A DNA stretch of 64,000 nt from a virus (taxonomy: Duplodnaviria; Heunggongvirae; Uroviricota; Caudoviricetes): IMG/VR virus record IMGVR_UViG_3300028610_001217. One strand, given 5' to 3'. Below the pieces are notes generated by a model. That model ran no database searches and was not told the DNA's origin. It saw only the letters and a list, made by a program, of their open reading frames with translations. Both the position numbers and the translations under genes were made by a program. This document shows positions 5,382 to 31,805 of the stretch, piece after piece; the stretch's first letter is position 1, and each line of letters begins with the position of its first letter.

Positions 5382-5683
5382 TCAGGCTCCCATCCTTGTA
5401 GTTGTACCCATAGTGTTTCGAGAGCGTTTTCTAAACTACCTTTAGCGATATTAGCCATTGACATGAATGCTACATTTTGAAACCCTTGCTGTAGCCATTC
5501 AAGCTTTCTTAATGGACCGCCCTTTTTATATCGCTCGGTTTCCATAATGAAATCTATAACCGGGTCTTCGCTGAAGGTCTTACCATCTAAGGATATAAAT
5601 CCATTGCCTTCGTCGTCTGTAAGTAGTAGCGCCTTACCTGCTCCCTCACTAGGAAAGAACTTCATGAATGAGAAATACATCAT
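5378..5683 (-). CDS. hypothetical protein
   Basis: 101-aa ORF, 4-nt overlap with the MuF gene stop. Confidence 0.4.
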   Translation of the reverse strand: MMYFSFMKFFPSEGAGKALLLTDDEGNGFISLDGKTFSEDPVIDFIMETERYKKGGPLRKLEWLQQGFQNVAFMSMANIAKGSLENALETLWVQLQGWEPE

Positions 5684-17444: not shown

Positions 17445-18402
17445 TCTGCTCTTCTTTGGTTATTGTAACGTAATACGGCAGCGAAATTATATGCCTAAAT
17501 GCCTCGTCAACTTCTGGCAAATCCTTAGGCCAATCAACCCACAGTCGATAATCAGTTACAGGTGCCATTGCCATTACGCCGCGCTCTTGCATGGCTGCAA
17601 CAACGTCAGTCGTTAGGTGATGTTTCTCCAGCCTTACCGTGTACCTATAAGGTAATTTGGCATTACAAGCTTGATAGTTCTCTAGCAGTGGATCATAATA
17701 GTCGGCCACCTTACGTTTTAAGTCCATCTCCCAAATAAGCTTTGACATCTTACTAAGGGCAATCGCAGCACCTACATCGTTGAAAAGGTCATTTTGCTTT
17801 AACGATGGTGGCTTATTACCGTAAGTCCTGAGGTCTTTGACTTTATCGATTAGCTCCTCGCTGCCACTTACAATGCCCCCGCCAGTTGAACCTATAAATT
17901 TAGTGGGATAAAAGCTTGTGATAGCCAAATCAGCAGTTTGCTCGACTAAGGTATGACACATATCCTCAATAACTGGAATGCCTAGATTCCTCAGCGGCTT
18001 AATCTTGGCCTCATGCCCAAACATGTGAACCGCTATAATGGCACGAGTTTTAGGCGTTACTTTAGCCGTTACCGAGTACGGATCAAGGCAAAGTGTATCG
18101 CCATCTATATCGGCTAACACCGGAACAGCCCCGATCGTGAGGATTGCATTGTGCAACGCAACACAATTGTAAGCTGATATAATTACTTCGTCACCCGCTA
18201 GTACCCCTAGCGCCTTTAAACCCAACCTGAGCGCTGTCAGGCCGCTGGAGACAGTAGCAGAAGCTGTTGCCTTAACCGATTTAGCCCATACATATTCAAG
18301 TGTTTCGCACGCAGGCCCAGAAGCCAAGAAACCGCTGGCTATAACCTCTTGAGCGGCCAACATTTCCGCCTCACCGAAAAGCGGTTTATTGTGGGGTATC
18401 AT
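17407..18402 (-). CDS. DegT/DnrJ/EryC1/StrS-family PLP-dependent sugar aminotransferase
   Basis: 331 aa; N-terminus MIPHNKPLFGEAE...ASGFLASGP is typical of the family. Second aminotransferase in the island. Confidence 0.75.
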   Translation of the reverse strand: MIPHNKPLFGEAEMLAAQEVIASGFLASGPACETLEYVWAKSVKATASATVSSGLTALRLGLKALGVLAGDEVIISAYNCVALHNAILTIGAVPVLADIDGDTLCLDPYSVTAKVTPKTRAIIAVHMFGHEAKIKPLRNLGIPVIEDMCHTLVEQTADLAITSFYPTKFIGSTGGGIVSGSEELIDKVKDLRTYGNKPPSLKQNDLFNDVGAAIALSKMSKLIWEMDLKRKVADYYDPLLENYQACNAKLPYRYTVRLEKHHLTTDVVAAMQERGVMAMAPVTDYRLWVDWPKDLPEVDEAFRHIISLPYYVTITKEEQNEVVRVLGECIA

Positions 18403-18649
18403 TAGCCGCTTTCGCTAACTCTTTGATAAATAGTTCAGCAAAGCCTTCACTCTCACAACCATCTTCACAACTGCAAGCGATACACTGGATGCAATAATTT
18501 TTGTCAGCAATTTCTTTTGCGACCTTCCTAATTAAACCTTCTTCGTAAAGAGCAATATGATAATTAAGAGATCCAACAATTTTACTCAAAGTCACCCACC
18601 TTGATCTTGCCGACCGGAATACCTTCATACCACCAAACGATTCCTTCAA
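18386..18649 (-). CDS. hypothetical Cys-rich protein
   Basis: CIQCIACSCEDGCESEG cluster; 87 aa. Confidence 0.3.
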   Translation of the reverse strand: MKESFGGMKVFRSARSRWVTLSKIVGSLNYHIALYEEGLIRKVAKEIADKNYCIQCIACSCEDGCESEGFAELFIKELAKAANDTPQ

Positions 18650-19154
18650 TTCTGACCCTAGGGTTATAGATACTCCTGCAATCGTTTAATAATGTATGTA
18701 AATCGTCGAAATCTGTAGATGCGACGTACAACTCTAAGCCCTCACGCATGCGCGGATCCGAAAACAGAAATATAAATGGTTTATCTAACGTAAGCGGATT
18801 ACCCTGAATTTTGGGACCAATTGCTTCGCCCGACCATTCACCATCCGATGTATTGGTAAAGTTTGTATTATTTACTGCTACCCACATGTGTTGATCGGCG
18901 GGATCAAGTGATTCGGCATCAGTATACCAAGGATCAACTATCCCCTCTGCCTTTTGCTCCTTCCTGGGATTGCGACGTTTCTCTAATCTGACGCAACGTC
19001 CTGCCCGAATAGTCACGCGGACATTAGTGCCATCTAGTTTCTCAGTAGCCACGGCACCTTCCGGCAAGTCAACAAGTCTTTTATCGATTACATAATGCTT
19101 GCCTCGTTTGCCGTCACCATAATCTCTGTCAAAAATTGTTGGAATTTTCCTCAT
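18582..19154 (-). CDS. nucleotidyltransferase of the RNA/DNA ligase superfamily (KxDG motif)
   Basis: TEKLDGTNVRV (motif I lysine), later EGIVWW and KIKV (motif IV/V-like). Small (190 aa). Confidence 0.4.
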   Translation of the reverse strand: MRKIPTIFDRDYGDGKRGKHYVIDKRLVDLPEGAVATEKLDGTNVRVTIRAGRCVRLEKRRNPRKEQKAEGIVDPWYTDAESLDPADQHMWVAVNNTNFTNTSDGEWSGEAIGPKIQGNPLTLDKPFIFLFSDPRMREGLELYVASTDFDDLHTLLNDCRSIYNPRVRIEGIVWWYEGIPVGKIKVGDFE

Positions 19155-19164
19155 TTAACCCCCA

Positions 19165-19599
19165 TTAAAATATTGCCATTCTTATGTGGCCTTCAGGCTC
19201 ATGTTTACCCTCCGGGTAGAAACCGCATTTACGGAAAGCCCCTATACTGCGCTCGTTTTCCTCCCGAATGACCGCAACAACCTTAATGATGCGCCACTTT
19301 TCAAAAACTTCCCTAACCCCCATATTAATTGCGGTTATTGCTACGCCGCCACCCCTGTGATCTTCGCTGATATATATGGAGACAACAGCTTCCTCATCCA
19401 CCCTATCAAACCGGATGAAACCAACATTAGGCTCAATTATATAATACAAAACCTCGTCACTTGCTATGGCAACTGGGTAATATATTAAATGTTGCTCCCA
19501 GCTTACCGCCTTTTGCGTAGTTGTTACGCTTATCATATCGGGCATGTTCCGCCAATTAAACACCGTCCGCATATCAGTCTTCTTGGCGAGGCGAATCAA
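19165..19599 (-). CDS. GNAT N-acetyltransferase (PseH-like)
   Basis: HRGGGVAITAI acetyl-CoA-binding motif A; 144 aa; sits in the Pse island. Confidence 0.5.
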   Translation of the reverse strand: MIRLAKKTDMRTVFNWRNMPDMISVTTTQKAVSWEQHLIYYPVAIASDEVLYYIIEPNVGFIRFDRVDEEAVVSIYISEDHRGGGVAITAINMGVREVFEKWRIIKVVAVIREENERSIGAFRKCGFYPEGKHEPEGHIRMAIF

Positions 19600-19799
19600 T
19601 GTGTAATCCTTATTTCATCAGCAAAATTCAATAATTCTTCTGCTATTAACCTAATATCAGCTTCATTAAATACGCCAAAACCACCTTCTATATAAACAAC
19701 CACTTTTTTCTCACTCGATATATACGAAACTAAGTCCCCTTTTTTCATTTCTCCAGATAATATATATTCTCTTGCATCTCCAGTTACTACTTCCGCCAT
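19596..19799 (-). CDS. SAF-domain protein (detached C-terminal domain of NeuB-type synthase)
   Basis: 67 aa; VVTGDAREYILSGEMKKGDLVS resembles the SAF/antifreeze-like C-terminal domain. Its ATG overlaps the TGA stop of the upstream NeuB barrel (ATGA). Confidence 0.45.
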   Translation of the reverse strand: MAEVVTGDAREYILSGEMKKGDLVSYISSEKKVVVYIEGGFGVFNEADIRLIAEELLNFADEIRITH

Positions 19800-20524
19800 C
19801 AGCCTATTGTCGCCTTAAGCTGTTTAAGCTCAGTAGTATCTAAGGACCACCAATGATCTGGCCCATCAGCTTCATGTTCAAGCGTAAAATGGACTTCAAT
19901 AGCTACTGCCCCTAATTCAGTGGCACGTATGCAAACATCTACTCCTTGTTTTCCCGCTACATGATTGCTGTACCCGCAAGTATATCCCATGTTTTGTATT
20001 GCTCGTATTTTCCACAATTTGGGGTAAATGCAAGGATATTGTGATTCGCAATGAAGAATTAAATCTTCTGGATTAGCTATTTCGTGAAGGTTGTTTAAAT
20101 CTGCTACATGACCCATTGATATAACAATCGGTAGATTTTGACGATGCATTTCTTTTATCATTTCAGTATTGAATATCATATCTGATGCAACTTTTAAGGC
20201 GCATACACCTAAGTCAACCATCTCCTTGACACCTCGGGCGCTAACAGTGGTAACAAAAAACGGAATACCTACTAATTCACAATGTTCTTTTATTTCTTGC
20301 CATTGCCCTAATGAAAATTCATGACGCTTAAATAAATCAAATAAACTTTCACCATTATGCATACCGCTACTATCAAAATCTTCTGGGGGTGCATGTTGAA
20401 ATTTAACGTAATTAGCCCCAGCGCTAACCGCTGCATTGATAGTTTCTTTGGCTAATTCAATTAACCCATTATGATTTAGGCCAATTTCGGCTATAAGTAT
20501 AGGCGCAGTCCCGACTTTATGCAT
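19799..20524 (-). CDS. NeuB-family nonulosonic acid synthase, TIM-barrel part (PseI/NeuB-like)
   Basis: [12 protein letters not shown]...YVKFQ ... GYSNHV ... IEVHFTLE canonical NeuB motifs. Lacks the fused SAF domain, which is encoded by the next ORF. Confidence 0.75.
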
Positions 20525-21254
20525 TAATAATTTTCATCCCCTCCAACAAAGCTTGTCTAGCATTTTTTCTAATATCTCTCTCCCAAAGCCTAATTACCTT
20601 ATAGCCTTTATCTTTCATATAAGCATCACGCTTTCTATCTGATTCCCTTCCATCAGGATAGTTATGCCAATAGTCCCCGTCGCATTCTATTACTAGGTTG
20701 CAACAAGGGATGAAGATATCTGGGAAATATGGACTAATACGTTTGCCAATTTGGTGCGTTATATTGAGAAGCCCCAATTCTTTACAAATAGCTATTTCGA
20801 TTGAAGATGGATTGGCGGTTCGCGCCAACCAAGCATTTTCTAAATAATCTCTTCGCTCATGAATATCCCTAGCAGCCCATACTTTTTTGCCAGCAATACT
20901 CATTTTATTTTTAGCGGCATTAGTATGTTTATGCCCCTTAAAGCAGCCATCCCGACCCTTGTTGGCCTTACTTATATTTTGTCGATGTTCTTGAGTAAAA
21001 GTTTTTTGCCTACCTGCTTGCTTAAGTTTTTCTATAGTTTCTTCTGAATACACCCCTTTCCGCCCTTTGTTCCAAGGAGTATTCCCAGTCATTCGTTCCC
21101 TAATCTTTTCACAATGTTCTTTAGAAAACTTTTTCCCTTTATGCGCAACACTCATACGATTCTTAGTTTCTTCAGAATGCTTTTTACCTTTGCTCGACTC
21201 ACTTATCTTTTTCTTAGTTTCTTCAGGCATTGGTCTACCTTTTGACCAACTCAC
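20517..21254 (-). CDS. homing endonuclease-like protein: NUMOD3 repeats plus Vsr/DUF559-like nuclease domain
   Basis: [29 protein letters not shown] repeats (NUMOD3-like). C-terminal [22 protein letters not shown]...[20 protein letters not shown] (DUF559/Vsr-like). Confidence 0.7.
20660..20731. repeat. 72-nt exact repeat, copy 1 (shared with 22481..22552)
   Basis: agttatgccaatagtccccgtcgcattctattactaggttgcaacaagggatgaagatatctgggaaatatg is identical at both loci. It encodes the [23 protein letters not shown] core of the two endonuclease genes. Confidence 0.9.
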
Positions 21255-21276
21255 AATTAAACTTCCTCAATTTCAA

Positions 21277-22365
21277 TCATGAAGTCACCGAGTCATAAGT
21301 CAATTGCTCATTATTTTTAGCATCACGACTAGCCCTTTTACCAATGAATAAATAATCGAGGTAAGGTGAAAGACCATTGCCCGGCCTCTTCGCAGCCAGC
21401 ATTTCTCTTGTGATAACCTCACCGGCTTTAACGTCCCGGTTAAAGACCAAACTTACAAACCATAATTCACGCTGCGAAACATCTGCCATAGAGGGAAACA
21501 AACCATAATCACCTAACATCTCTAGCCGGGGGAACCTTGGACTAAATTCGTAGGAAGCACTTTGTAGCCAATAAACATATTCTTTGAACTTCTTAGCCTC
21601 AATAGCTTTAGTTTGATGGTGGCCCCCAGGATCGTCGTTGTTGAGTTTAATCCTTTTCTCTATCAAAACGGCACCTAAACTTACCGCTAAGCCGTCCGGA
21701 TCCCAATCTGCCCAATCAGCACTGTAACCTACCGCTATGTCGTATCTATCTTTGAGGTAAGGAATAGTCTTTAAGTTGAGTTCGGACGCATTAGGTGAGT
21801 GTGACTCATAAACAAATATTACATTACGTTGAAACCACTGCCTGCCCTTTGTTTCAATAATTTGCTCAACTAGCGCAACAACTTCGGAGCTATTAACTGC
21901 CCCAATATCGAATTGTATCGGCTTGCCTGTTTCCAATACTGCTTCAATCAGGTATTTATTGGTAGTGTCCCAGCCGCCTATTTTGTAGCAAGGGACTTCA
22001 AGCTCTTCAGCTAAAGGAATGTAGTCTATTGTTCCAACCGAAACATAAAAAATAATACCCCGCTCTTTGCAGTAAGCAGCTACCTTGCGCCAGTCTTCGT
22101 CAGGCACCCAATAAGACAATATGACCTGAACCAGAGATTTATCTTCATACTGAAGTGTAAAGTCGGCTATCAGTTCTTCCGGGTTTGACATAATGAACTT
22201 AATAGCATCACAAGAAGCATCTACTGCTGCATCGATCAACTTCTTTGCTATTTCCAGGCTACCTTTTGATGTCGATCCTGCCTCAGCTACGATAAATAAG
22301 GGTGCGCCGCTACCGATTTCCCTATTACCAATTTTCAAGCTATTTCCCCCTTGTTGATCGCACAC
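21277..22365 (-). CDS. divergent NeuB-family synthase with fused SAF domain
   Basis: LFIVAEAGSTSKGSLEIAKKLIDAAVDASCDAIKF N-terminal region. C-terminal VITREMLAAKRPGNGLSP SAF-like domain. Diverges from canonical NeuB (KFIMSNP instead of KFQ). Confidence 0.55.
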   Translation of the reverse strand: MCDQQGGNSLKIGNREIGSGAPLFIVAEAGSTSKGSLEIAKKLIDAAVDASCDAIKFIMSNPEELIADFTLQYEDKSLVQVILSYWVPDEDWRKVAAYCKERGIIFYVSVGTIDYIPLAEELEVPCYKIGGWDTTNKYLIEAVLETGKPIQFDIGAVNSSEVVALVEQIIETKGRQWFQRNVIFVYESHSPNASELNLKTIPYLKDRYDIAVGYSADWADWDPDGLAVSLGAVLIEKRIKLNNDDPGGHHQTKAIEAKKFKEYVYWLQSASYEFSPRFPRLEMLGDYGLFPSMADVSQRELWFVSLVFNRDVKAGEVITREMLAAKRPGNGLSPYLDYLFIGKRASRDAKNNEQLTYDSVTS

Positions 22366-22988
22366 AATAAAGCTTGTTGCGCATCCTTCCTAATATCTCG
22401 CTCCCAAATTCTAATAACTTTATACCCATGTGCCCCCATAAAATTATCTCTTTGAGCGTCGTTTTCTTGTCTCCCCGGTAAGTTATGCCAATAGTCCCCG
22501 TCGCATTCTATTACTAGGTTGCAACAAGGGATGAAGATATCTGGGAAATATGAGCCAATTTGTTTATCTGCTTCATAAGTAATGTTGAGGTCATTTAGAA
22601 CTTTATGGATAGCTGTTTCTATAGATGATGGGCTTGATATTTGTGCTACCTTAAATGCTTTTTGAGTATGCTCTCTTTTTTGCCCTATTGATAAGCTACC
22701 CCACCATTCGTTACCACCTTTGTGCAGCAAATCTAACCGTTCTTGCTTGTCTTCTGGTGAAGCGTTAGCCCAAAACTTTTTAGCACCATTGTTAAAAGCT
22801 GGCAAAAGCCTTATTACTCGTTCTTCTTTTGAACAACCCCCCCAATACCCTTTTAAGCCAATAGAAATATTCTGTTTCTGCTTATTAGAAAGCTTTTTAC
22901 CCTTATGTGCTTCCTTCATTTTTGCTTTACTTTCTTCAGTATGCTTCTTGCCCTTAAATCCAGAAACCCTTCTCCCCTTAACTTGCAT
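22335..22988 (-). CDS. homing endonuclease-like protein, paralog of 20517..21254
   Basis: GKKHTEESKAKMKEAHKGKKLSNKQKQNI NUMOD3-like repeats. [24 protein letters not shown]...GYKVIRIWERDI Vsr/DUF559-like domain. Confidence 0.7.
   Translation of the reverse strand: MQVKGRRVSGFKGKKHTEESKAKMKEAHKGKKLSNKQKQNISIGLKGYWGGCSKEERVIRLLPAFNNGAKKFWANASPEDKQERLDLLHKGGNEWWGSLSIGQKREHTQKAFKVAQISSPSSIETAIHKVLNDLNITYEADKQIGSYFPDIFIPCCNLVIECDGDYWHNLPGRQENDAQRDNFMGAHGYKVIRIWERDIRKDAQQALLCAINKGEIA
22481..22552. repeat. 72-nt exact repeat, copy 2
   Basis: Identical to 20660..20731. Confidence 0.9.
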
Positions 22989-24051
22989 AATCCACTATAA
23001 CCTCAATTATATAATCAACTTGTTTGTTTGTTAGGCCAGGGTATATTGGGATACTTAATACTTCTTTGCATACTTTTTCGGAAATTAAGCAACTCCCTGG
23101 GTTATGATAATAAGGCTCCAAGGTCAATGCTCTATAATGTACCTGGCTACCTATCCCTTTATTTTTTAAGTGTTGCCTTAATTTGTTTCTTTTTTTACAC
23201 CTAATAACGTAAAGGTGATGAGAACTTTTACATCCCCCGAGCTGCGTCAATGGCGTTACCCCCGTAACTTGTGAGAAAGCATCATTGTATCTATTAGCTA
23301 TCTTACTCCTTTTATCTATGAAGTGGTCAAGCCTTTTTAATTGATTAATTCCCAAGGCGCAACTGATATCTGAAAGCCGATAATTGAAGCCCAGGGTTTC
23401 CATACCGCGCTCACTTCTACCGTGATTACGAAATTGCTTAGCTCGCTCATAAAGTGCTTCAGCATCAGAATGCTCAAAAGAAACCATACCCCCTTCGCCG
23501 GTAGTTATCGACTTAACTGGGTGAAATGAGAAGCAATTTATATGGCCCCAAAAAGCATGAGGTATTTTTAGGTAGTCGGCCCCTAGTGAATGGCAAGCAT
23601 CGTCAATTAACCATAGGTTATGCTTATCAGCCAACTGCCTTAGCCCTAAGTAGTTGCAAGGTTGCCCGGCAAAGTCGACGGCGATAACAGCTTTTGTCTT
23701 CGCAGTTATCTTGCGCTCGATATCCTCAAGATCTATTAGAAGCGTATCTGCCGCAACATCAGCAAAAACTGGTACTGCTCCCATGTAAGCCACACAATTA
23801 GCACTAGCCACAAACGTAATAGCTGGTGTGATAACTTCATCCCCCACCCCAATCTCAATAGCTGCCATTGCACAATGTAAGGCTGCCGTCCCCGAACTTA
23901 CAGCTAATGTATATTCACTGCCAATTTTAGCAGCAAAGGCTTTTTCGAATTCTTCAACCTTTGGGCCAGTGGTGAGAAAATCTGACCTTAGAGTTTCCGC
24001 TACCGCCTTAATGTCATCCTGGTCAATATTTTGATGATTATATGGTATCAA
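22978..24051 (-). CDS. pseC: PseC-type PLP-dependent aminotransferase (UDP-4-amino-4,6-dideoxy-N-acetyl-beta-L-altrosamine transaminase family)
   Basis: MIPYNHQNIDQDDIKAVAETLRSDFLTTGPKVEEFE is a typical PseC/DegT N-terminus; 357 aa. Confidence 0.8.
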   Translation of the reverse strand: MIPYNHQNIDQDDIKAVAETLRSDFLTTGPKVEEFEKAFAAKIGSEYTLAVSSGTAALHCAMAAIEIGVGDEVITPAITFVASANCVAYMGAVPVFADVAADTLLIDLEDIERKITAKTKAVIAVDFAGQPCNYLGLRQLADKHNLWLIDDACHSLGADYLKIPHAFWGHINCFSFHPVKSITTGEGGMVSFEHSDAEALYERAKQFRNHGRSERGMETLGFNYRLSDISCALGINQLKRLDHFIDKRSKIANRYNDAFSQVTGVTPLTQLGGCKSSHHLYVIRCKKRNKLRQHLKNKGIGSQVHYRALTLEPYYHNPGSCLISEKVCKEVLSIPIYPGLTNKQVDYIIEVIVDYAS

Positions 24052-24175: not shown

Positions 24176-25141
24176 TCATTTAATCAAGCTCCCTATTTGG
24201 TCGCCTGTTAAAAATAACTCATTCTTGTCACTTGCATAAGACCCTTTGAACGGCTTACCCTCTATGCTACCCCGTTCAAACCAGGTATGTGATGGCAGCA
24301 CCACGTATCTATTTTCCTGACTGATCGCTGTTTCTCCTTCAGCTATCAAAACTTCGTGAAGCTTTTCCCCTGGCCTAATTCCTGAAACCTCAATATTACA
24401 ATCCGGCCCAATAGTCTGAGCTAATTGCATAATGTTGCAACTAGGAATCTTGGGAACAAATATTTCGCCGCCGACCATAGTATCTAGCGCTTCAAGTACA
24501 AAGTCGGTAGCTTGGTCGAGTGTTATCCAGAACCGGGTCATCTTAACATCCGTTATTGTGAGCAAACCCTTTTTCTTTTGTTCCTTAAACTTGGGGACAA
24601 CGCTACCCCGGCTCCCCACCACATTACCGTATCGCACAACCGATATCCTAGTTGATGTTCCGCTAGCATAAGCGTTACCCTGAATGAACAATTTTTCAGC
24701 CATTAGCTTGGACGCCCCATATGCATTTATAGGGTTTACAGCTTTATCAGTAGATAGCGCCACTAACTTCTTAACTCTGCACGTTATGGCCGCTTCTAGG
24801 ACGTTCTGAGAGCCTATTATATTAGTGTTCACACCCTCATAAGGGTTATATTCAATTGCCGGCACTTGCTTCAACGCTGCCGCATGAATAACAATATCGA
24901 TATCATGAAGCGCTATCCTTAAGCGCCCTGGATCCCGGACATCACCTAAGAAGTAACGTAACCGGCTGTCGGGATCAATTGAGGTATCCGGGAAGCCAGT
25001 TTGACGCATTTGTTCTTGCTTCAGTTCATCCCGGCTGTAGATAACAACCTTTTTAGCGCGTTGCTTTAATGCTTTCTTTATAAACGCCTTACCGAATGAG
25101 CCTGTGCCTCCTGTGATTAATACGTTAAGTCCTTCCAGCAC
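24176..25141 (-). CDS. pseB: PseB-type UDP-GlcNAc 4,6-dehydratase/5-epimerase (Polysacc_synt_2, FlaA1-like)
   Basis: LNVLITGGTGSFGKAFIKKAL Rossmann motif; 321 aa; short-chain dehydratase architecture. Confidence 0.8.
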   Translation of the reverse strand: MLEGLNVLITGGTGSFGKAFIKKALKQRAKKVVIYSRDELKQEQMRQTGFPDTSIDPDSRLRYFLGDVRDPGRLRIALHDIDIVIHAAALKQVPAIEYNPYEGVNTNIIGSQNVLEAAITCRVKKLVALSTDKAVNPINAYGASKLMAEKLFIQGNAYASGTSTRISVVRYGNVVGSRGSVVPKFKEQKKKGLLTITDVKMTRFWITLDQATDFVLEALDTMVGGEIFVPKIPSCNIMQLAQTIGPDCNIEVSGIRPGEKLHEVLIAEGETAISQENRYVVLPSHTWFERGSIEGKPFKGSYASDKNELFLTGDQIGSLIK

Positions 25142-25691: not shown

Positions 25692-25905
25692 TCCTGTCTC
25701 TCTTTCTGCCTACCTATCTGCCTAGCCGTTAATCAAACAGTCTTGCACTATTTTAACCTAAAAAGAAAAAGCCCAACGGTCTGACGCCCGTCGAGCCTTT
25801 TCTAAATTCGTAACCGGATCCTTAAAGGGTTATCAACCCCCTTGGACCTCAAACATCGGAGCCCGTAAAAGCTAAAAGCAAGAGCACGACCTCGCTATCC
25901 GATAG

Positions 25906-25977
25906 AAGCTACGGCTGGATTCAAACCAGCGTGGAACGGTTTTGCAAACCGTTGCCTAATCACTCGGCCACGTAGCC
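25906..25977 (-). tRNA. tRNA-Cys(GCA)
   Basis: Hand-folded cloverleaf: anticodon stem ACGGT/ACCGT, loop TTGCAAA, T-arm GCTGG-TTTGAAT-CCAGC, U73 discriminator. Confidence 0.65.
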
Positions 25978-25985
25978 ATAAACAG

Positions 25986-26058
25986 CAGCGCTAGGGGGAA
26001 TCGAACCCGCCTTGACAAGATTGAAAATCTTGGATCCTAGCCGTTAGATGATAGCGCC
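25986..26058 (-). tRNA. tRNA-Glu(TTC)
   Basis: Anticodon arm CAAGA-TTTTCAA-TCTTG; D-arm TCATCTAACGGCTAGGA resembles bacterial tRNA-Glu; TTCGATT T-loop. Confidence 0.6.
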
Positions 26059-26175
26059 ATAAAAGGGATAGTAGGTGCACCCTAGAAAGCTATTCCAAGT
26101 ATGCCCTCAGCCAGCAACGCAACGGTTTCCGTGGTCTTGTGTCGTTCTGAACTAGTTGCCGAACCTTTACCCTAG

Positions 26176-26248
26176 TGGCGGAGGCCGGATTCGAACCGGC
26201 GACCTACAGCTTATGAGGCTGGCGAGCTGTCCACTGCTCTACTCCGCT
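26176..26248 (-). tRNA. tRNA-Met/Ile2(CAT)
   Basis: Loop CTCATAA; T-arm GCCGG-TTCGAAT-CCGGC; A1 x C72 mismatch at the acceptor top. Confidence 0.6.
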
Positions 26249-26393
26249 ATGAATTTATAAGTGACTCCCCCACATTATGTGTATTACTAAAGCAGCGCTA
26301 GTTGCCCCTAATCCTATCGACAAAATAAGAATGCTTATGTTTAATCTATCCATATTTAGTTTATCCCCCGGTTAACCAATTCCTAAACCTTTG

Positions 26394-26466
26394 CGACAAT
26401 AATGGGATTCGAACCCACGTCCCCCACCGTGACAGGGTGGTGCTTTAGCCACTAAGCTATATTGCC
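26394..26466 (-). tRNA. tRNA-Asp(GTC)
   Basis: Anticodon arm CCACC-CTGTCAC-GGTGG; G73; T-arm GTGGG-TTCGAAT-CCCAT. Confidence 0.7.
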
Positions 26467-26479
26467 TTGTTAAATCTAG

Positions 26480-26552
26480 TAGGCCATCGAGGTCTCGAAC
26501 CTCGCACCACCGGATTAAAAGTCCGATGCTCTACCTGATGAGCTAATGACCC
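26480..26552 (-). tRNA. tRNA-Lys(TTT)
   Basis: Anticodon arm TCGGA-CTTTTAA-TCCGG; T-arm CGAGG-TTCGAGA-CCTCG. Confidence 0.7.
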
Positions 26553-26556
26553 TCAG

Positions 26557-26628
26557 TGGGCTATAAAGGATTCGAACCTATACTCCCGGATTCGTAGTCC
26601 GGTGCTCTCTCCATTGAGCTAATAACCC
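26557..26628 (-). tRNA. tRNA-Arg(ACG)
   Basis: Anticodon arm CCGGA-CTACGAA-TCCGG; acceptor GGGTTAT/ATAGCCC. Confidence 0.65.
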
Positions 26629-26629
26629 G

Positions 26630-26701
26630 TGGGCTATCAAGGATTCGAACCCTGACTCTCGGGGTAGAAACCCGATGCTCTGTCCTTTGAGCTAATAACC
26701 C
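26630..26701 (-). tRNA. tRNA-Arg(TCT)
   Basis: Anticodon arm TCGGG-TTTCTAC-CCCGA; same acceptor as the previous tRNA; 1-nt spacer to its neighbour. Confidence 0.65.
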
Positions 26702-27406
26702 TTAATAAAATAATAAAGGAACAGCAAAGACTAATCCAAATAATAAGGCTATGCCAGAAATAACAGCAGTTATTCCGACCCCATCAGGGTGCTCCCTACA
26801 AAATACCCGCAAATGATCAATTGCGTTTATCCGTATATTCCCCAAGCTTGGCTTGTAATCGTAAAATTCTTCCCACTCAGCAATTGCATATTTTTGACCA
26901 GTCGCAAACTCTATAACTATAAGTGGGTCTGAGTAACGTATTGAGTGATCATAATTAGGAGTATACACAGTAAAAGTACAATCATTTACCTTTACACCTA
27001 ATTCTTGTTTCCACTTATTTATAGTCATAAGGATATCCGCTGGAACCATCCCTCTTTCTTCGGTGAAATCTTTCAAAGGGGTTCGATTAAACCGCCGTGT
27101 AGTTCGACCTTTGTATTTACAGAATACTCTTTCCTTATTAGCCAGTAAGCCATATATCGGGGTGCTATCGTATCTTTCAGTCCCTCCCTCTAACAAAATA
27201 TTCTCAAGTGGAACACAAAATTTATCGTTATTGTTTTGTATGTTGGCAACAAGTAGCTTAATTTCAATTGTTTTTAATTCGTGATCATAACGAGAAGTCG
27301 GTATTTGAAGTTCCTTTGCTTGCTCAACCGCCAACTCAAGCTGTAACACCTCCGTGTTTATTTCTTCACTCGATATCCGCTCCGTCACATTCTTTAGCGC
27401 AAACAC
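26702..27406 (-). CDS. hypothetical protein with C-terminal transmembrane helix
   Basis: 234 aa; C-terminal ITAVISGIALLFGLVFAVPLLFY; embedded in the tRNA array. Confidence 0.4.
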   Translation of the reverse strand: MFALKNVTERISSEEINTEVLQLELAVEQAKELQIPTSRYDHELKTIEIKLLVANIQNNNDKFCVPLENILLEGGTERYDSTPIYGLLANKERVFCKYKGRTTRRFNRTPLKDFTEERGMVPADILMTINKWKQELGVKVNDCTFTVYTPNYDHSIRYSDPLIVIEFATGQKYAIAEWEEFYDYKPSLGNIRINAIDHLRVFCREHPDGVGITAVISGIALLFGLVFAVPLLFY

Positions 27407-27440
27407 ATTTCCCCCATTCTATATTTCAACATTAAACCTG

Positions 27441-27522
27441 TGGGCCGGGAGGGAGTCGAACCCTCAATCCCGAAGGCAACAGGGCTTAAACCTGTTGTGT
27501 ATTCCAATTCCACCACCAGCCC
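27441..27522 (-). tRNA. tRNA-Leu(TAA)
   Basis: Class II with long variable arm; anticodon arm ACAGG-TTTAAGC-CCTGT; D-arm GTGGAATTGGAATACAC resembles bacterial tRNA-Leu. Confidence 0.7.
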
Positions 27523-27526
27523 AAAA

Positions 27527-27874
27527 TTATTTATCTAAATAATAATATTCAGTTTCTACGCTTGGCTGTGGGGCTAATTTATCAATCGCCCCGGCCCGTA
27601 TTTGTTGACCATATTTACCTCCGCAACTTTCACAAAAAGGGCCAGCCTTTCCTTGTTTAGCATTTGCCCGCACCTTACACGGAACTCTAAGAAGCTCTTC
27701 CCCGCACCAAATACAGTTGACCTTTATCCGCTTAGCCCTTCTAGCATCCTCTAGCCCATGCTGCTTATGGCTTACTATTCTTAGGTTTTCAATTCGATCA
27801 TCCGTGAAGTCCCGATTGATATGGTCTACTGTTTCATCCGCCGTCAACTCCCTGCCTAAATGCTGTTCCATCAA
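27527..27874 (-). CDS. HNH homing endonuclease
   Basis: VDHINRDFTDDRIENLRIVSHKQHG HNH motif plus a Cys4 zinc ribbon (CIWCGEE...CESCG); 115 aa. Confidence 0.7.
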   Translation of the reverse strand: MMEQHLGRELTADETVDHINRDFTDDRIENLRIVSHKQHGLEDARRAKRIKVNCIWCGEELLRVPCKVRANAKQGKAGPFCESCGGKYGQQIRAGAIDKLAPQPSVETEYYYLDK

Positions 27875-27991
27875 ATATCTTGGATAAGATTTAGTAGTTC
27901 TTCTTCCGTCAGCAAACTTAATGATTAATTGCTTTCGCCCATCCGACCTAATATACGGTCCACAAATCTTAATATATATTCCTTTCTGCAG

Positions 27992-28063
27992 TAGGCAAGG
28001 AGGGGATCGAACCCCCGACCAGTAAGATGTAAACCTACCACTCTACCGCTGAGTTACTCGCCT
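27992..28063 (-). tRNA. tRNA-Val(TAC)
   Basis: Anticodon arm GTAGG-TTTACAT-CTTAC; A73; T-arm GGGGG-TTCGATC-CCCTC. Confidence 0.65.
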
Positions 28064-28069
28064 GCAAAG

Positions 28070-28142
28070 TAGGCTAGGAGAGATTCGAACTCTCACTACC
28101 TGGTTTCTAAAACCAGTTTCTCTGCCGTTGGAATACTAGCCT
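28070..28142 (-). tRNA. class I tRNA with anticodon TAG (reads CUA; unusual for Leu)
   Basis: Acceptor AGGCTAG/CTAGCCT; anticodon arm CTGGT-TTTAGAA-ACCAG with U33/A37; only a 5-nt variable loop (no long arm); T-arm GAGAG-TTCGAAT-CTCTC. Confidence 0.5.
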
Positions 28143-28145
28143 ATG

Positions 28146-28230
28146 TTGGTGGTGGCCGGATTCAAACCGACTTGTTGGCGTTTTCTGACGGACTTACACC
28201 GCTCCCATCCGAAGATAAGTCCCCAACCAG
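28146..28230 (-). ncRNA. tRNA-like 3' element (T-arm GTCGG-TTTGAAT-CCGGC plus CACCACCA 3' end) with unresolved 5' half
   Basis: Canonical T-arm and acceptor-like 3' strand are visible, but no complementary 5' acceptor strand (GGTGGTG) occurs within 300 nt. A 7-bp hairpin GGACTTA...TAAGTCC lies upstream. Confidence 0.25.
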
Positions 28231-28428
28231 TACCATGGTTTTCTCTGGCGGGCAGCATTTAAAGGTCTGCAAATTTAAGACTTTCGCCCTCGACTACCCG
28301 CTTCCCTCGCTACCTATGGGCGCATACTAACGGGCTTGTCGGCCAACTTATAACGTAGAACTTCAGCGTTTCTCACACGCCGCACTACCAATTACTTTAT
28401 ACCCCTATAACGGGAATATAAACCTAAG

Positions 28429-28502
28429 TCCGGATGGAAGGATTCGAACCTCCGTCTTCTCGGCCCCAAACCGAGCGCTCCACCAAACTGAGCTACATCC
28501 AG
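28429..28502 (-). tRNA. tRNA-Pro(TGG)
   Basis: Anticodon arm CTCGG-TTTGGGG-CCGAG; T-arm GGAGG-TTCGAAT-CCTTC. Confidence 0.7.
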
Positions 28503-28508
28503 ATAACG

Positions 28509-28593
28509 CGGAAAGAGCAGGATTCGAACCTACGGAGGATTTCTCCCCTCTGGTTTAGCAAACCAGCGCCTTAAACCTCTCAGCCATCTTTCC
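28509..28593 (-). tRNA. tRNA-Ser(GCT)
   Basis: Class II; anticodon arm CTGGT-TTGCTAA-ACCAG; long variable arm; G73. Confidence 0.7.
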
Positions 28594-28747
28594 AAACACT
28601 AAGCCCTTGGTTGCCTCGGGCAGGGAGCCTGAACTATACCCGAGACTTGAACACATCACATACCAGGGCGATATTCTATGAGCCGCTATTTCAGGAGCGC
28701 ACTCTAGCGTGATGCATTGACATAATACGGGCTTGTCGCCGCTATCG

Positions 28748-28819
28748 CACCATCCCCAGGACTCGAACCTGGAACCGTCACCTTAACAGGGTGCTGCTCT
28801 ACCATTGAGCTACGATGGT
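28748..28819 (-). tRNA. tRNA-Asn(GTT)
   Basis: Loop CTGTTAA; T-arm CCAGG-TTCGAGT-CCTGG. Confidence 0.6.
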
Positions 28820-28820
28820 C

Positions 28821-28896
28821 TGGGGTGACCGATGGGATTTGAACCCACATAACCGGGGGTCACGGCCCCGTTCCGTTACCTATTGGATACGGCCAC
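28821..28896 (-). tRNA. tRNA-His(GTG), CCA encoded
   Basis: Anticodon arm CGGGG-CCGTGAC-CCCCG; C73 followed by genomically encoded CCA. Position -1 is T, so no encoded G-1. Confidence 0.6.
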
Positions 28897-28898
28897 AG

Positions 28899-28991
28899 AG
28901 GAAGAAGTAGGATTCGAACCCACGGACCCGTATCGCTACGGACCAACGGTTTTCAAGACCGCCGCAATAATCCAGACTCTGCCATTCTTCC
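28899..28991 (-). tRNA. tRNA-Ser(TGA)
   Basis: Class II; anticodon arm GCGGT-CTTGAAA-ACCGT; 21-nt variable arm; acceptor GGAAGAA/TTCTTCC. Confidence 0.65.
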
Positions 28992-29041
28992 TAAAGGTCG
29001 GGAGAAGAAAGCGAGGTGAGTCCCAAAAAACTCCCGACCAG

Positions 29042-29113
29042 AGCGACTAGAGGGACTCGAACCCCCAAATAACAGCTTGGAAGGCTGCAGCACTACCATT
29101 GTGCGATAGTCGC
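29042..29113 (-). tRNA. tRNA-Gly(TCC)
   Basis: Loop CTTCCAA; acceptor GCGACTA/TAGTCGC; U73. Confidence 0.65.
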
Positions 29114-29199
29114 ATAAGAGGAACTGGGTCGGAACCCAAAGCGACCAAACTAGGAGTAAGTAAGAAGAGGTGAATCTATCTTTTTCCCAGTTCCTCTAG

Positions 29200-29270
29200 C
29201 ACGCCACCCAGGATTCGAACCCGGTCAAGACCGTTTTGGAGACGGTCTGGCACAGCCTACGCTGTAGCGC
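29200..29270 (-). tRNA. probable tRNA-Trp(CCA) with atypical D-arm
   Basis: Anticodon arm ACCGT-CTCCAAA-ACGGT closely resembles bacterial tRNA-Trp. T-arm CCGGG-TTCGAAT-CCTGG, G73. Acceptor pairs with two G-U wobbles; the D-arm does not fold canonically. Confidence 0.4.
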
Positions 29271-29334
29271 ATACGGCGAGAGGGGACTTTCCGGCGGAGA
29301 AGTATATGCTACTTTTACCCGGCCTCTCACCTTG

Positions 29335-29406
29335 TGGAACGTGAAGGAATCGAACCTCCGACCTACAAGTTATCAGCTTGCCGCTCTACCACTGAGCTAC
29401 CATTCC
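29335..29406 (-). tRNA. tRNA-Ile(GAT)
   Basis: Loop CTGATAA; D-arm GCTCAGTGGTAGAGC; T-arm GGAGG-TTCGATT-CCTTC. Confidence 0.65.
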
Positions 29407-29524
29407 TGGCGTCCCGCATGGGATACATCCACAAACACCTTATCGAACGTGTTGCACCTCGCCCAACCCACGGAGGCATGACGGGACTCCCCCCATCCGC
29501 ATGCATACGAAAGGGTTGAGCTTG

Positions 29525-29604
29525 TAGGAGCGGTAGGAGTTGAACCTACACAGCCGCAACGGGTGCTTTACAGGCACTTGGGTTCACCAATACCCAGCGC
29601 TCCT
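29525..29604 (-). tRNA. tRNA-Tyr(GTA)
   Basis: Class II; perfect acceptor AGGAGCG/CGCTCCT; loop CTGTAAA; 13-nt variable arm. Confidence 0.65.
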
Positions 29605-29702
29605 ATGTCGATAGATTAGCTAATCATCGTTAGCCTCACGACCCACGATCCCTCGTCCCACAACCTCACTAACCTATCTCGGGGGTCTTGCAGCCCCCCT
29701 TG

Positions 29703-29775
29703 TGGATGTAATAGGACTTGAACCTACAACCTTTGGCTTGCAAAGCCACTGCTCTCCCAATTGAGCTATACACCC
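29703..29775 (-). tRNA. tRNA-Ala(TGC)
   Basis: G3-U70 pair and A73 discriminator (Ala identity); loop TTTGCAA; T-arm GTAGG-TTCAAGT-CCTAT. Confidence 0.75.
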
Positions 29776-29784
29776 TTACTGATT

Positions 29785-30021
29785 TCATAATCGCCCACGT
29801 AATTCGTTCTTCCAATTGGTAAGTTCTTTTTCACGGCTAATGGCCAACCACTTCTGGTGTTCTTTGACTAGTTCGCCAATATATATGAAGCCACTTGCGA
29901 GGACGATTATCAGGCAACCTATTGCGCCAACAATACGCTCTCCTTGAAGGGCAGCCGCTAACGTCAACGCTGCTCCGCCACCTAAAAATAAACTTAAAGA
30001 GATTCTCAAAAGTATTAACAT
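29785..30021 (-). CDS. small membrane protein (two TM helices)
   Basis: 78 aa; hydrophobic segments ISLSLFLGGGAALTLAAAL and IGCLIIVLASGFIYI. Confidence 0.35.
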   Translation of the reverse strand: MLILLRISLSLFLGGGAALTLAAALQGERIVGAIGCLIIVLASGFIYIGELVKEHQKWLAISREKELTNWKNELRGRL

Positions 30022-30058
30022 AGGTAGTTCTTACCCCGCTATCCCCAATAATAAACCT

Positions 30059-30496
30059 TTATTCAATAATAACTTCAAGTTCCTTGATCCAATCGCCTTC
30101 AATATAGTATGCCCTTATATCGATATCAGATAAGGATACGATCACGTAAACGAGGCCAGCGTCAACTGCTTTAGCCGTATCTATCATTGAGGGGTAAGCT
30201 TCACTCATTGGGTGTGAGTGCCAACTAGCAATAAGCTCATTACCCTCTTCACGCATTTGCTTGATAACGTTAAACGCCTCAACCGGGTCAACTTCGTAAG
30301 TCATGTTACCCTTTTCCAGGTTCTTTGTAGGATATACTTTAGCGACCCTACGCCGTGACCCGCCTAGCATACCACAAGCCTCTCTAGGGAATACACGTAT
30401 CGCCTCCTCAAGCATGCTCATAGCTACTGCTTGCTTGATGTAGAGTTTATCTCTATTCTCGGTTATCAGCTTCATATTTGATGTGCTTCGTTTCAT
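30059..30496 (-). CDS. JAB/MPN (JAMM) metalloisopeptidase
   Basis: Upstream Glu (EACGML) followed by a perfect JAMM motif HSHPMSEAYPSMID (HxHx7Sx2D); 145 aa. Confidence 0.75.
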   Translation of the reverse strand: MKRSTSNMKLITENRDKLYIKQAVAMSMLEEAIRVFPREACGMLGGSRRRVAKVYPTKNLEKGNMTYEVDPVEAFNVIKQMREEGNELIASWHSHPMSEAYPSMIDTAKAVDAGLVYVIVSLSDIDIRAYYIEGDWIKELEVIIE

Positions 30497-30587
30497 TTGT
30501 TTTTATTTTAGATTTCTCAAAAACCATAAGCGCCACTATGACAATTAAGGCAAATACAAAGAAACCCATAACAAATCCGACTAGCAT

Positions 30588-30926
30588 CTAATCCCCCTCT
30601 ACATCTTCTAATGACCAAGTTTTGACTATTTTGTATACCCAGTAATTACTCCCCGCCCGGTCTGGCCACTCACAACCCTCTTTGCCACAAGTGCTACAAA
30701 CTTTTATTCTCTTATTCTTATAAACTCGACGCTTAACCGTCTTCTTGACGTTATCTACCTTGGCTAGTGCGGCATCAGTTTTTTTAATAGCCTTAGTCAC
30801 GTCTGGCACTGTAACCTTGGTCGTTGGCTTAACTACTTCCTCGCTAAGCCCGGTTGTCGCTATCTTCGGCTTTCTCTTTTGCGTTGCCCCCATTAATGCT
30901 GCTCCCCGCTTTTTTATATTGACCAT
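30588..30926 (-). CDS. basic zinc-ribbon protein
   Basis: 112 aa, Lys/Arg-rich N-terminus, CSTCGKEGCEW motif. Confidence 0.35.
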   Translation of the reverse strand: MVNIKKRGAALMGATQKRKPKIATTGLSEEVVKPTTKVTVPDVTKAIKKTDAALAKVDNVKKTVKRRVYKNKRIKVCSTCGKEGCEWPDRAGSNYWVYKIVKTWSLEDVEGD

Positions 30927-31016
30927 TTATCGCTGCCATTAACATCATAAATATACCCGTAGACAAAACAGCTAAACCAATTAATGCTGGTGTTTCGTTA
31001 AACATGCCTCACCTCC

Positions 31017-31232
31017 TCATGCTACTTTACCTGCGCAACGTTCGCGACGTTCACACTTAGAACATGATGCTTTCGTCCTGCACTCAGAAACGTCCAAGTC
31101 GAAGTGTTTGACGATGCCCTCAAGTTGAACCGCAAATATAGGGTCTCGTAGCGTTTCAATGTGAGCTAAATAACGCTTTAATCTATCATCACGTGCAATA
31201 AGCTCGTATGTTCTACCTAATTGACTATTCAT
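31017..31232 (-). CDS. hypothetical protein
   Basis: 71 aa; C-terminal Cys cluster CRTKASCSKCERRERC. Confidence 0.3.
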   Translation of the reverse strand: MNSQLGRTYELIARDDRLKRYLAHIETLRDPIFAVQLEGIVKHFDLDVSECRTKASCSKCERRERCAGKVA

Positions 31233-31486
31233 ATAGCCTCAGCCTCGCCTACCGTCCACTCAGCGCTACCTATAAGCTCCATTTCTTCCCATTTTGCTCG
31301 ATAATATGCTATGCCACCTGGTTGACTGCTAGTTCCTATGTCTTGAACATACCCTTGAGCGCCCCACGGTTTAGGATCAGTTATCACCATGAAGCAAGCT
31401 GAGAAAGCTAAATTCTCAACCTTATTAGGGTTAAGCTGGACAACGTCCCCTCTTCTTAATGCTGTCATTCTCATAGAGCTACCCAC
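31229..31486 (-). CDS. hypothetical protein
   Basis: 85-aa ORF abutting tRNA-Thr. Confidence 0.3.
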   Translation of the reverse strand: MGSSMRMTALRRGDVVQLNPNKVENLAFSACFMVITDPKPWGAQGYVQDIGTSSQPGGIAYYRAKWEEMELIGSAEWTVGEAEAI

Positions 31487-31551
31487 AGGACTCGAACCTG
31501 TAACCTGCTGCTTACAAGGCAGCTGCTCTAGCCAAATTGAGCTACGGTAGC
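31477..31551 (-). tRNA. tRNA-Thr(TGT)
   Basis: Anticodon arm GCTGC-CTTGTAA-GCAGC; T-arm ACAGG-TTCGAGT-CCTGT. Confidence 0.65.
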
Positions 31552-31732
31552 AAAGGGACTGTTTTTATAGAGCTGTCCTTACTCGCTCTCCCGAATGGGT
31601 TCCCAGTTTCGGCTCGCTGGTTACTAACGCTCACTGCTTGCGCTTTCCCTCCAGTCTGCCAAGGTCTGGGCAACCATCGGCTCCTGCATTATTGGCCTTG
31701 TTCAGCCTCATCAGTTTGCAGCTGAGCCGTTG

Positions 31733-31805
31733 CTGCGAAGGCTGGAATCGAACCAGCGTCACAAGGCTCTTCAAGCCCCTGCTCTACCGCTAGAGCTACT
31801 TCGCA
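31733..31805 (-). tRNA. tRNA-Phe(GAA)
   Basis: Perfect acceptor TGCGAAG/CTTCGCA; loop TTGAAGA; T-arm GCTGG-TTCGATT-CCAGC. Confidence 0.65.

Follow-up and report, generated by a model that had tools for sequence, protein, structure and literature searches.

The Endonuclease Genes and the NeuB Genes of the Locus

The stretch of DNA analyzed here, a 64,000-nt piece of the genome of a tailed virus (Caudoviricetes; IMG/VR record IMGVR_UViG_3300028610_001217), is referred to below as the window. It carries a sugar-biosynthesis region, every gene of which lies on the minus strand, in the transcription order PseB, PseC, HEG2, NeuB_A, HEG1, NeuB_B, a 67-aa open reading frame (ORF) and PseH. HEG2 (22335–22988, 217 aa) and HEG1 (20517–21254, 245 aa) are putative homing endonuclease genes (HEGs); NeuB_A is a divergent synthase with a NeuB and a SAF domain, and NeuB_B (19799–20524, 241 aa) is a NeuB barrel without SAF. 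A preliminary reading of the letters alone, hereinafter the sequence-only reading, had described two paralogous free-standing endonuclease genes with NUMOD3 repeats and a Vsr/DUF559-like domain, which bracket the NeuB-SAF gene and are followed by a more canonical NeuB; this gene order is borne out by the ORFs. The coordinates given there for NeuB_A (21277–22365, the mechanical ORF) hold for the ORF and its domains (Pfam NeuB, 105.8 bits; SAF, 29.5 bits) and not for its start: by sequence, translation most likely begins at TTG 22338 (MKIGNREIG...), which overlaps the HEG2 stop as TTGA, and not at GTG 22365, so that the gene occupies 21277–22338.

The domains of both endonucleases scored above the Pfam cut-offs, which for DUF559 is 20.6 bits: HEG2 matched DUF559 (40.2 bits), MTES_1575 (39.9 bits) and NUMOD3 (25.2 bits, one stretch), and HEG1 matched NUMOD3 (64.1 bits, four stretches), DUF559 (33.5 bits) and likewise MTES_1575. 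In both proteins NUMOD3 is N-terminal to the nuclease domain. In the 22-member family alignment (A4), residues D179, D192, Y195, H197, D206 and R222 (HEG1 numbering) are invariant and E190 is kept in at least 90% of the members; the catalytic positions of HEG1 match D196, E, N208, H213 and D222 of I-Bth0305I in a phmmer alignment to 3R3P (PMC3239194), the likeness of the sequences as such being marginal (phmmer E = 0.27). The AlphaFold2 model of HEG1 had a mean pLDDT of 80.5, with values above 90 in the nuclease domain, and its top Foldseek match in the PDB was the catalytic domain of I-Bth0305I (3R3P; E = 5e-5, TMt 0.74), followed by the DUF559 protein 3HRL and then by Vsr of Escherichia coli (1CW0, 1VSR). 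The EDxHD family, defined by the catalytic residues E/D/H/D (PMC3239194), is known from phage and marine metagenomes in intron-borne, intein-borne and free-standing form (Dassa et al., 2009, PMC2677866; Taylor et al., 2011, PMC3239194). Judged by domain content and model, HEG1 and HEG2 belong to the free-standing Vsr-like (EDxHD-type) homing endonuclease genes, with NUMOD3 repeats and a C-terminal nuclease. HEG1 is preceded by its own Shine-Dalgarno sequence, GAGGA.

Two further putative homing endonuclease genes were noted in the window. Tblastn with the HEGs and Pfam profiles (Intein_splicing, DUF559, Vsr) located a 377-aa intein (CLVSYK...FVVHN, followed by C) at 6481–7611 on the minus strand, inside the ORF 5680–9132, where it makes up aa 508–884 of a 1150-aa Mu-F-like head-morphogenesis protein with a C-terminal HipA-like/PI3-4-kinase-like domain; the intein contains a zinc ribbon, NUMOD-like repeats and a Vsr/DUF559 domain, and would be an intein-borne EDxHD-type HEG. 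A 115-aa HNH_3 gene (27527–27874, minus strand) lies inside a tRNA array. With these two besides HEG1 and HEG2, the genome appears to be rich in HEGs.

Presence and Absence of the Endonuclease Genes in Related Phages

No close relative was found among GenBank phages (INPHARED; megablast, blastn and tblastn), which gave only distant endonuclease matches, and single-protein scans of IMG/VR with PseC and NeuB_B returned no matches. The closest relatives were retrieved through exact-protein contig look-ups and are designated here by locus numbers. The sister lineage, L005 (JGI 3300009788), is 73–83% identical to the window in nucleotide sequence and has the order PseC, NeuB_A, HEG1 orthologue, NeuB_B, GNAT, DegT. 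It possesses neither HEG2, nor the 67-aa ORF, nor the RNA-ligase-like gene with the 87-aa ORF behind PseH; this last block, 18404–19164 in the window, has no counterpart in L005 and constitutes a third ORF-sized indel.

The HEG2 indel is precise to the base and comprises 638 nt (22351–22988). The empty junction of PseC and NeuB_A in L005 reads ...GTTGAAAATT joined to GGGGTAGATAGCTTAAAAATTGG..., and the filled junction of the window reads ...GTGGATT joined to ATGCAAG...(638 nt)...ATCAACAA joined to GGGGGAAATAGCTTGAAAATTGG... The insert begins exactly at the ATG of HEG2 and supplies a new C-terminus to PseC (the last ~4 codons and the stop), while the last five codons and the stop of HEG2 are pre-existing sequence. 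At the empty junction of L005 (positions 1031–1069) we also observed an imperfect tandem repeat, TTGAAAATTGGGGTAGA / TTAAAAATTGGGGGTAGA, which duplicates the start region of NeuB_A.

The HEG1 orthologue is found in L005, L006 and L007 with 73% aa identity, its divergence being the same as that of the flanking genes (76–80% nt); by this comparison, the insertion of HEG1 predates the split from the nearest sister lineage. L006 and L007 are L005-type fragments recovered from the two samples that also yielded the window contig, which means that HEG2-bearing phages and their sister phages co-occur. The last six codons of HEG1 (MKIINA and the stop) once belonged to the 5' end of the ancestral NeuB_B, and the structure in L005 is the same. 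If the T is removed from TAA, the stop codon of HEG1, a 19-residue canonical NeuB N-terminus reappears, homologous to the start of NeuB_A (MKIGNREIGSGAPLFIVAEAG). This restored N-terminus indicates that HEG1 entered directly upstream of NeuB_B and took over the first six codons of that gene, a new ATG now serving NeuB_B.

In more distant loci (L011, L012, L014–L017 and L021) HEG1 is absent and NeuB_A abuts or overlaps NeuB_B; in L021, PseC, NeuB_A and NeuB_B are joined directly. Most parsimoniously, HEG2 is specific to the lineage of the window and was gained later than HEG1. It might instead be supposed that HEG2 occupied the PseC–NeuB_A junction ancestrally and that the L005 lineage lost it by a precise deletion, since HEGs are lost as well as gained and a different HEG in L011 shows that this site can be occupied over long periods. 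We regard this as unlikely: PseC meets NeuB_A directly in L021, the ORFs found at the junction in L096, L012 and L014 are unrelated, and a deletion that restores both the C-terminus of PseC and the start of NeuB_A would have to be exact.

Other endonuclease genes are inserted in the same island of the relatives. At the PseC–NeuB_A junction L011 carries an HNH_3 gene, encoded on the opposite strand, and in L008 an HNH gene with NUMOD3 follows PseB. In L021 (10621–13717) the second DegT gene is split, into Pfam profile positions 9–203 and 223–359, by a 363-aa NUMOD3 and Vsr-like HEG, just upstream of which stands a 305-aa NUMOD3 and HNH gene; the zinc-finger N-terminus common to the two points to shuffling of nuclease domains. 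These comparisons support the view that, across the relatives, endonuclease genes have a hot spot of insertion in the pseudaminic-acid island. Outside the cassette, the closest family member is P0244 (43% identical to HEG2), which follows a thymidylate synthase gene on contigs from the same samples (L093 and L094, 9721–10519). P0244 is apparently disrupted, a 66-aa ORF holding the NUMOD3 part and a 172-aa ORF the nuclease.

HEG2 may also vary within the lineage of the window itself. P0241, its allele on a 101,279-bp contig of a third JGI assembly, is one C short in the CCC run that opens the tract shared with HEG1 (see below), so that the rest of the tract is read in a shifted frame, which accounts for the divergent C-terminus of the truncated, 157-aa product. 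P0241 represents either decay of the HEG or a homopolymer sequencing error; as a frameshifted allele it fits the decay cycle of HEGs. The active endonuclease-driven turnover in a metabolic island, as proposed in the sequence-only reading, agrees with the presence and absence of HEG2, with this allele, with the recombination between the copies described below and with the other HEGs of the relatives.

An alternative of a different kind is that the HEGs are no longer selfish, having been domesticated, for instance for the exclusion of competitors, for defence against satellites or for regulation of the sugar operon through binding of DNA. HEG1 is intact and has been kept vertically in two lineages which are ~20–24% apart in nucleotide sequence, the catalytic residues are conserved, and ICP1 offers a documented case of domesticated phage HEGs (PMC10448857). 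The polymorphism of HEG2 and its frameshifted allele, however, are typical of selfish turnover, and family members occur in unrelated contexts, so that we consider domestication rather improbable.

The 72-nt Tract Shared by HEG1 and HEG2

Positions 20660–20731 in HEG1 and 22481–22552 in HEG2, spaced by 1821 nt, are identical at 72 of 72 nucleotides, and the identity cannot be extended by a single base at either end. The tract encodes a 23-residue stretch which covers the catalytic core and includes IECDGDYWH, the most conserved peptide of the family. Outside the tract the two genes are ~53% identical in nucleotide sequence, and the proteins as a whole share 45% of their residues. Among the codons whose amino acid is conserved between HEG1 and HEG2, none of 22 is changed synonymously in the tract, as against 53% outside it (Fisher p = 2e-6); the perfect identity, noticed already in the sequence-only reading, is thus far beyond chance. 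The picture is different when HEG1 of the window is compared with its orthologue in the sister phage (L005_HEG): here 13 of 20 conserved codons (65%) in the tract are changed synonymously, as against 34.5% elsewhere (Fisher p = 0.013), and 18 of 69 nucleotides differ, although the tract peptide is almost the same. The relatives from L093 and L021 are 58–76% identical over the tract.

We read the 72-nt identity, on the strength of these codon comparisons, as short-tract gene conversion between old paralogues, and reject recent duplication, selection and artefact as its source. The sequence-only reading had named duplication and conversion side by side; the second of them is upheld by the absence of synonymous changes, and the first is contradicted by the low identity of the proteins. 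Inside the tract HEG1 differs from its own orthologue as much as paralogues differ, which suggests that the HEG1 tract was overwritten from HEG2; the direction of conversion was therefore probably from HEG2, as donor, to HEG1, as recipient.

Purifying selection on the catalytic motif, perhaps combined with codon bias or some function at the nucleotide level and acting without any recombination, has in its favor that no other peptide of the family is as conserved as the one encoded here. Yet nearly the same peptide is encoded in L005_HEG, L093 and L021 with many nucleotide differences, including the 13 synonymous changes between HEG1 and L005_HEG, so that constraint on the protein does not explain the identity, and the identity ends abruptly on both sides; selection as the only cause is in our opinion very improbable. 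Still less credible is that a tandem or segmental duplication occurred recently and trapped NeuB_A between the copies: the shared domain architecture and orientation, the 1821-nt spacing and the identical patch would fit it, but paralogues only 45% identical in protein exclude a recent event, HEG1 is much closer to its sister-phage orthologue (73% aa) than to HEG2, and the sister phage has HEG1 and no HEG2. As for an assembly artefact, which the sequence-only reading had named as something that might overturn the observation, 10 kb of the window match a 93-kb JGI contig (3300024265) and a 102-kb ENA/MEGAHIT contig (ERZ27251120) with 100% identity, and the tract is also present, with its 1-nt deletion, in the third assembly; the identity is consequently not an artefact of assembly.

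NeuB_B, the 67-aa ORF and the NeuB Pair

NeuB_B (Pfam NeuB, 141.4 bits) keeps the catalytic and metal-binding residues of the barrel (NHNG, KFQ, GYSNH, EVHF/IEVHF) and stops at the last helix of the barrel (...LKATIG), as do its homologues P0002–P0004, without a C-terminal SAF domain. Its best match in the PDB is 6NCS, a SAF-less synthase of 290 aa, and its homologues at 64–79% identity are all 241–251 aa long. The 67-aa ORF (19596–19799) is joined to NeuB_B by TGATG with an overlap of 1 nt, and not by the ATGA overlap mentioned in the sequence-only reading. It is a precise 204-nt insertion between the NeuB_B stop and the GNAT start, absent in L005 and L006, where TGATG joins NeuB_B to GNAT itself and NeuB_B ends at the same residue as in the window. 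No SAF, Pfam (E <= 0.01) or PHROG match was obtained for this ORF, and an exhaustive phmmer search of 1.8 billion representatives returned one credible homologue and no SAF proteins; the matches to long proteins reflected repeats or low complexity (dockerin, FG-GAP). The AlphaFold2 model, of low confidence, has an alpha-beta3-alpha fold and not the beta-clip of SAF, and the small ORFs which follow NeuB_B in L008 and L012 are unrelated to it. On these grounds the 67-aa ORF is identified as a lineage-specific ORFan insertion and not as a detached SAF domain. The model, going back to the sequence-only reading, that HEG activity had split a fused NeuB into a barrel ORF and a 67-aa SAF ORF, attractive in that NeuB_B lacks SAF and is followed by a small ORF with overlapping stop and start, deserves practically no credence, since that ORF has no SAF signal and is missing from L005 and L006 with the end of NeuB_B unchanged, SAF-less NeuB_B is conserved at 64–79% identity, and the small ORFs of L008 and L012 are unrelated.

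NeuB_A is unusual in another respect. In the alignment to NeuB of Neisseria meningitidis (NmNeuB, 1XUU) it has lost both metal-binding histidines (His215 and His236 of NmNeuB), GYSAD and IEKRI standing in place of G.SDH and IEKHF (His to Asp and Arg), and it is also substituted at the positions of Asn184, Tyr186, Gln55 and Asp247. The SAF domain retains the arginine of KRPGNG, equivalent to Arg314 of NmNeuB, and R327 is invariant in alignment A2. The same features characterize the whole clade of NeuB_A-like proteins, termed A-type below: the motif EKR is invariant among its 16 members and, down to 32% identity, the NH of AE.G.NHNG is lost, GHHH replaces GPDH, and the SAF arginine of KRPG.G is invariant. 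Neither protein of the window reached the NCBIfam cut-offs for PseI (TIGR03586, 340 bits) or NeuB (TIGR03569, 400 bits), NeuB_A scoring 119.8 and 143.6 bits and NeuB_B 116 and 154.4 bits, respectively. With the described NeuB, PseI and LegI synthases (PF03102 and SAF; NmNeuB 1XUZ, PseI of Campylobacter jejuni 8H2C, the SAF-less 6NCS) both proteins share the TIM barrel, NeuB_B the catalytic and metal residues and NeuB_A the SAF arginine; they differ from them in the exchanged histidines and GHHH motif of NeuB_A and in the missing SAF of NeuB_B.

When the NeuB ORFs of all fetched loci were classified by clade-specific hidden Markov models, an A-type and a canonical NeuB occurred together in 13 of 13 A-type loci (the window, L005, L008, L010–L012, L014–L019 and L021), whereas two NeuB genes were present in 10 of 72 canonical-only loci (Fisher p = 1.5e-9). 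The canonical gene usually lies directly downstream of the A-type gene with overlapping ends, so placed that the two are translationally coupled, most of the loci having no HEG in between, which indicates that the pair is much older than the HEGs. In L011 and L014–L019 the canonical partner has its full length and a SAF arginine of its own; it is SAF-less in the window, L005, L008, L010, L012 and L021, the domain having been lost more than once. Among the phage and metagenome contigs, to which the observations on the A-type clade are confined, its members were always accompanied by a canonical partner. From these loci the ancestral gene order is reconstructed as PseB-PseC-NeuB_A-NeuB_B-GNAT.

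The suggestion that the HEGs may have remodelled the NeuB locus does not agree with this constancy of the pair. The remodelling that can be attributed to the HEGs is, by the junction sequences, only cosmetic: the last codons of PseC were replaced, the last five codons of HEG2 were borrowed, and the first six codons of NeuB_B were absorbed. Whether the split NeuB and both endonuclease genes are ancient, as the sequence-only reading had also considered, has a divided answer: the SAF-less NeuB is ancient and HEG1 is common to the sister lineage, while HEG2 is variable.

In the domain-swapped dimer formed by canonical NeuB, each active site is completed by the SAF arginine of the partner subunit. 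With the arginine supplied across the dimer, NeuB_A and NeuB_B may work as an obligate heterodimer of a pseudo-enzyme lid and a catalytic barrel; or the A-type protein, its His-His metal site rebuilt, would make a second ulosonic acid. We advance these two possibilities as doubtful suggestions only. As a firm conclusion the heterodimer was rejected, the partners in L011 and L014–L019 keeping a SAF arginine of their own; the lone SAF-less NeuB of many phages, moreover, argues against strict dependence on SAF. Literature searches on NeuB pairs of phages yielded nothing relevant; the phage enzymes EpaA and EpaB of Acinetobacter baumannii are members of unrelated families. The conserved A-type and canonical pair is more novel than the endonucleases.

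Proposed Course of Events

Taken together, the data make it likely that two HEGs were inserted at gene boundaries of the island and later exchanged a 72-nt patch, the NeuB pair, the loss of SAF and the 67-aa ORF being independent of them. In a cell co-infected by a related HEG-less phage, the naive allele would be cut near the junction by the endonuclease, and recombinational repair would then copy the HEG in, by analogy with the intron-less homing of the seg and mob genes of T4. The two HEGs occupy homologous positions, each directly upstream of one of the NeuB paralogues and with its 3' end fused to pre-existing local sequence, an arrangement in which the operon stays tightly packed and translationally coupled. 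The homologous positions suggest that a HEG lineage targeting the NeuB 5' coding sequence (TGAAAATTNNTAAT...) hopped between the paralogues; they fit a target in this conserved sequence without proving it. In our opinion, the case represents a genuine but ordinary turnover of phage HEGs.

Several points weigh against this account. Small ORFs other than HEGs occupy the same junctions in L096, L012 and L014; in L096, the third of the close relatives, which shares its sample with L005, an unrelated ORF of ~73 aa lies between PseC and NeuB_A (250–470) and another small ORF comes after NeuB_A (1500–1698). Insertion at these boundaries is, consequently, not specific to endonucleases and need not be driven by them. 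The choice between gain of HEG2 and its loss in L005 depends on parsimony with outgroups which are all distant, and the direction of conversion depends on 20 codons at the p value given above. HEG2 has no clear Shine-Dalgarno sequence and overlaps PseC by 11 nt, which makes its expression uncertain. The JGI and ENA assemblies are independent as assemblies and were perhaps made from the same reads, so that the samples are not necessarily independent. Finally, cleavage and homing by HEG1 and HEG2 are presumed, the signatures being indirect.

The Cassette and Its Surroundings

The first gene of the cassette (24176–25141, minus strand) encodes a PseB-like inverting UDP-GlcNAc 4,6-dehydratase (Pfam Polysacc_synt_2), which exceeds the cut-off of the NCBIfam PseB model TIGR03589 (411.9 bits against 407.75). 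It is followed, on the same strand, by a PseC-like DegT aminotransferase gene (22978–24051; Pfam DegT_DnrJ_EryC1, E = 8e-111; top NCBIfam match PseC, 384 bits), and the GNAT acetyltransferase gene at 19165–19599 is PseH-like (Pfam Acetyltransf_3 and Acetyltransf_1; top NCBIfam match PseH). Farther downstream there are PseG-like and PseF-like genes, a second DegT, methyltransferases, WbqC and PIG-L, and then the terminase and portal genes. By its gene content the island is a complete pseudaminic-acid-type cassette with tailoring enzymes, which lies beside the packaging module, just upstream of the terminase genes, in a large tailed phage of ~93–102 kb in the assemblies found. A scan for sigma-70 promoters and terminators gave fewer sites than shuffled sequences; its top site, just upstream of HEG2, is not taken as evidence.

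Between PseH and the second DegT stands a block of ~760 nt (18386–19154, minus strand) with an RNA-ligase-like gene (18582–19154; PHROG 14301, RNA ligase) and the 87-aa cysteine-rich ORF, an odd cargo for a sugar operon. Just upstream of the cassette, an array of 22 tRNA genes for most amino acids (25905–31805, minus strand), in which the HNH_3 gene mentioned above is embedded, coincides with a rise in GC content at 28–30 kb.

Significance and Comparison with Known Systems

The locus provides a natural example, resolved to the base, of free-standing Vsr-like (EDxHD-type) HEGs with both filled and empty sites defined, and documents short-tract conversion between paralogous HEG copies, the 3' ends of which are built from host-gene sequence. 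It indicates that auxiliary sugar-biosynthesis islands, besides essential genes, are hot spots for HEGs and ORF cassettes. An annotation trap is corrected as well, the small ORF after a short NeuB being no detached SAF domain, and the always-paired, uncharacterised family of phage NeuB paralogues bears on how phages make nonulosonic acids.

Among described enzymes, the prototype of the EDxHD family, I-Bth0305I, resembles HEG1 and HEG2 in its N-terminal NUMOD-type repeats, C-terminal Vsr-like nuclease and conserved catalytic residues, and the N-terminal position of the NUMOD repeats, the reverse of the order in I-TevI and I-HmuI, is shared with the family. I-Bth0305I, however, has NUMOD2 repeats instead of NUMOD3 and resides in an intron in recA, whereas the genes of the window are free-standing between sugar-biosynthesis genes and their nuclease domain scores better as DUF559/MTES_1575.

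The hallmarks described for phage HEGs are a variable presence, frameshifts, copies that resemble one another in nucleotide sequence, and the bracketing of gene modules (Barth et al., 2023, PMC10448857). The locus shares with the free-standing HEGs of T4 and ICP1 the intergenic insertion beside conserved genes, the variable presence in close relatives, the frameshifted alleles, the nucleotide similarity between paralogous copies, the placement of two HEGs around one gene and, in L021, the shuffling of nuclease domains. It differs from them in that the nucleases of T4 and ICP1 are of the GIY-YIG, HNH or T5orf172 type and those of the window Vsr-like, and in that an auxiliary sugar-pathway gene is bracketed here and not an essential replication or structural gene; unlike the "HEG islands" of ICP1, no island of high identity between phages was seen, the flanks being 73–83% identical. 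The HEGs of the window thus behave as described for those of T4 and ICP1 and belong to the already known Vsr-like (EDxHD) kind.

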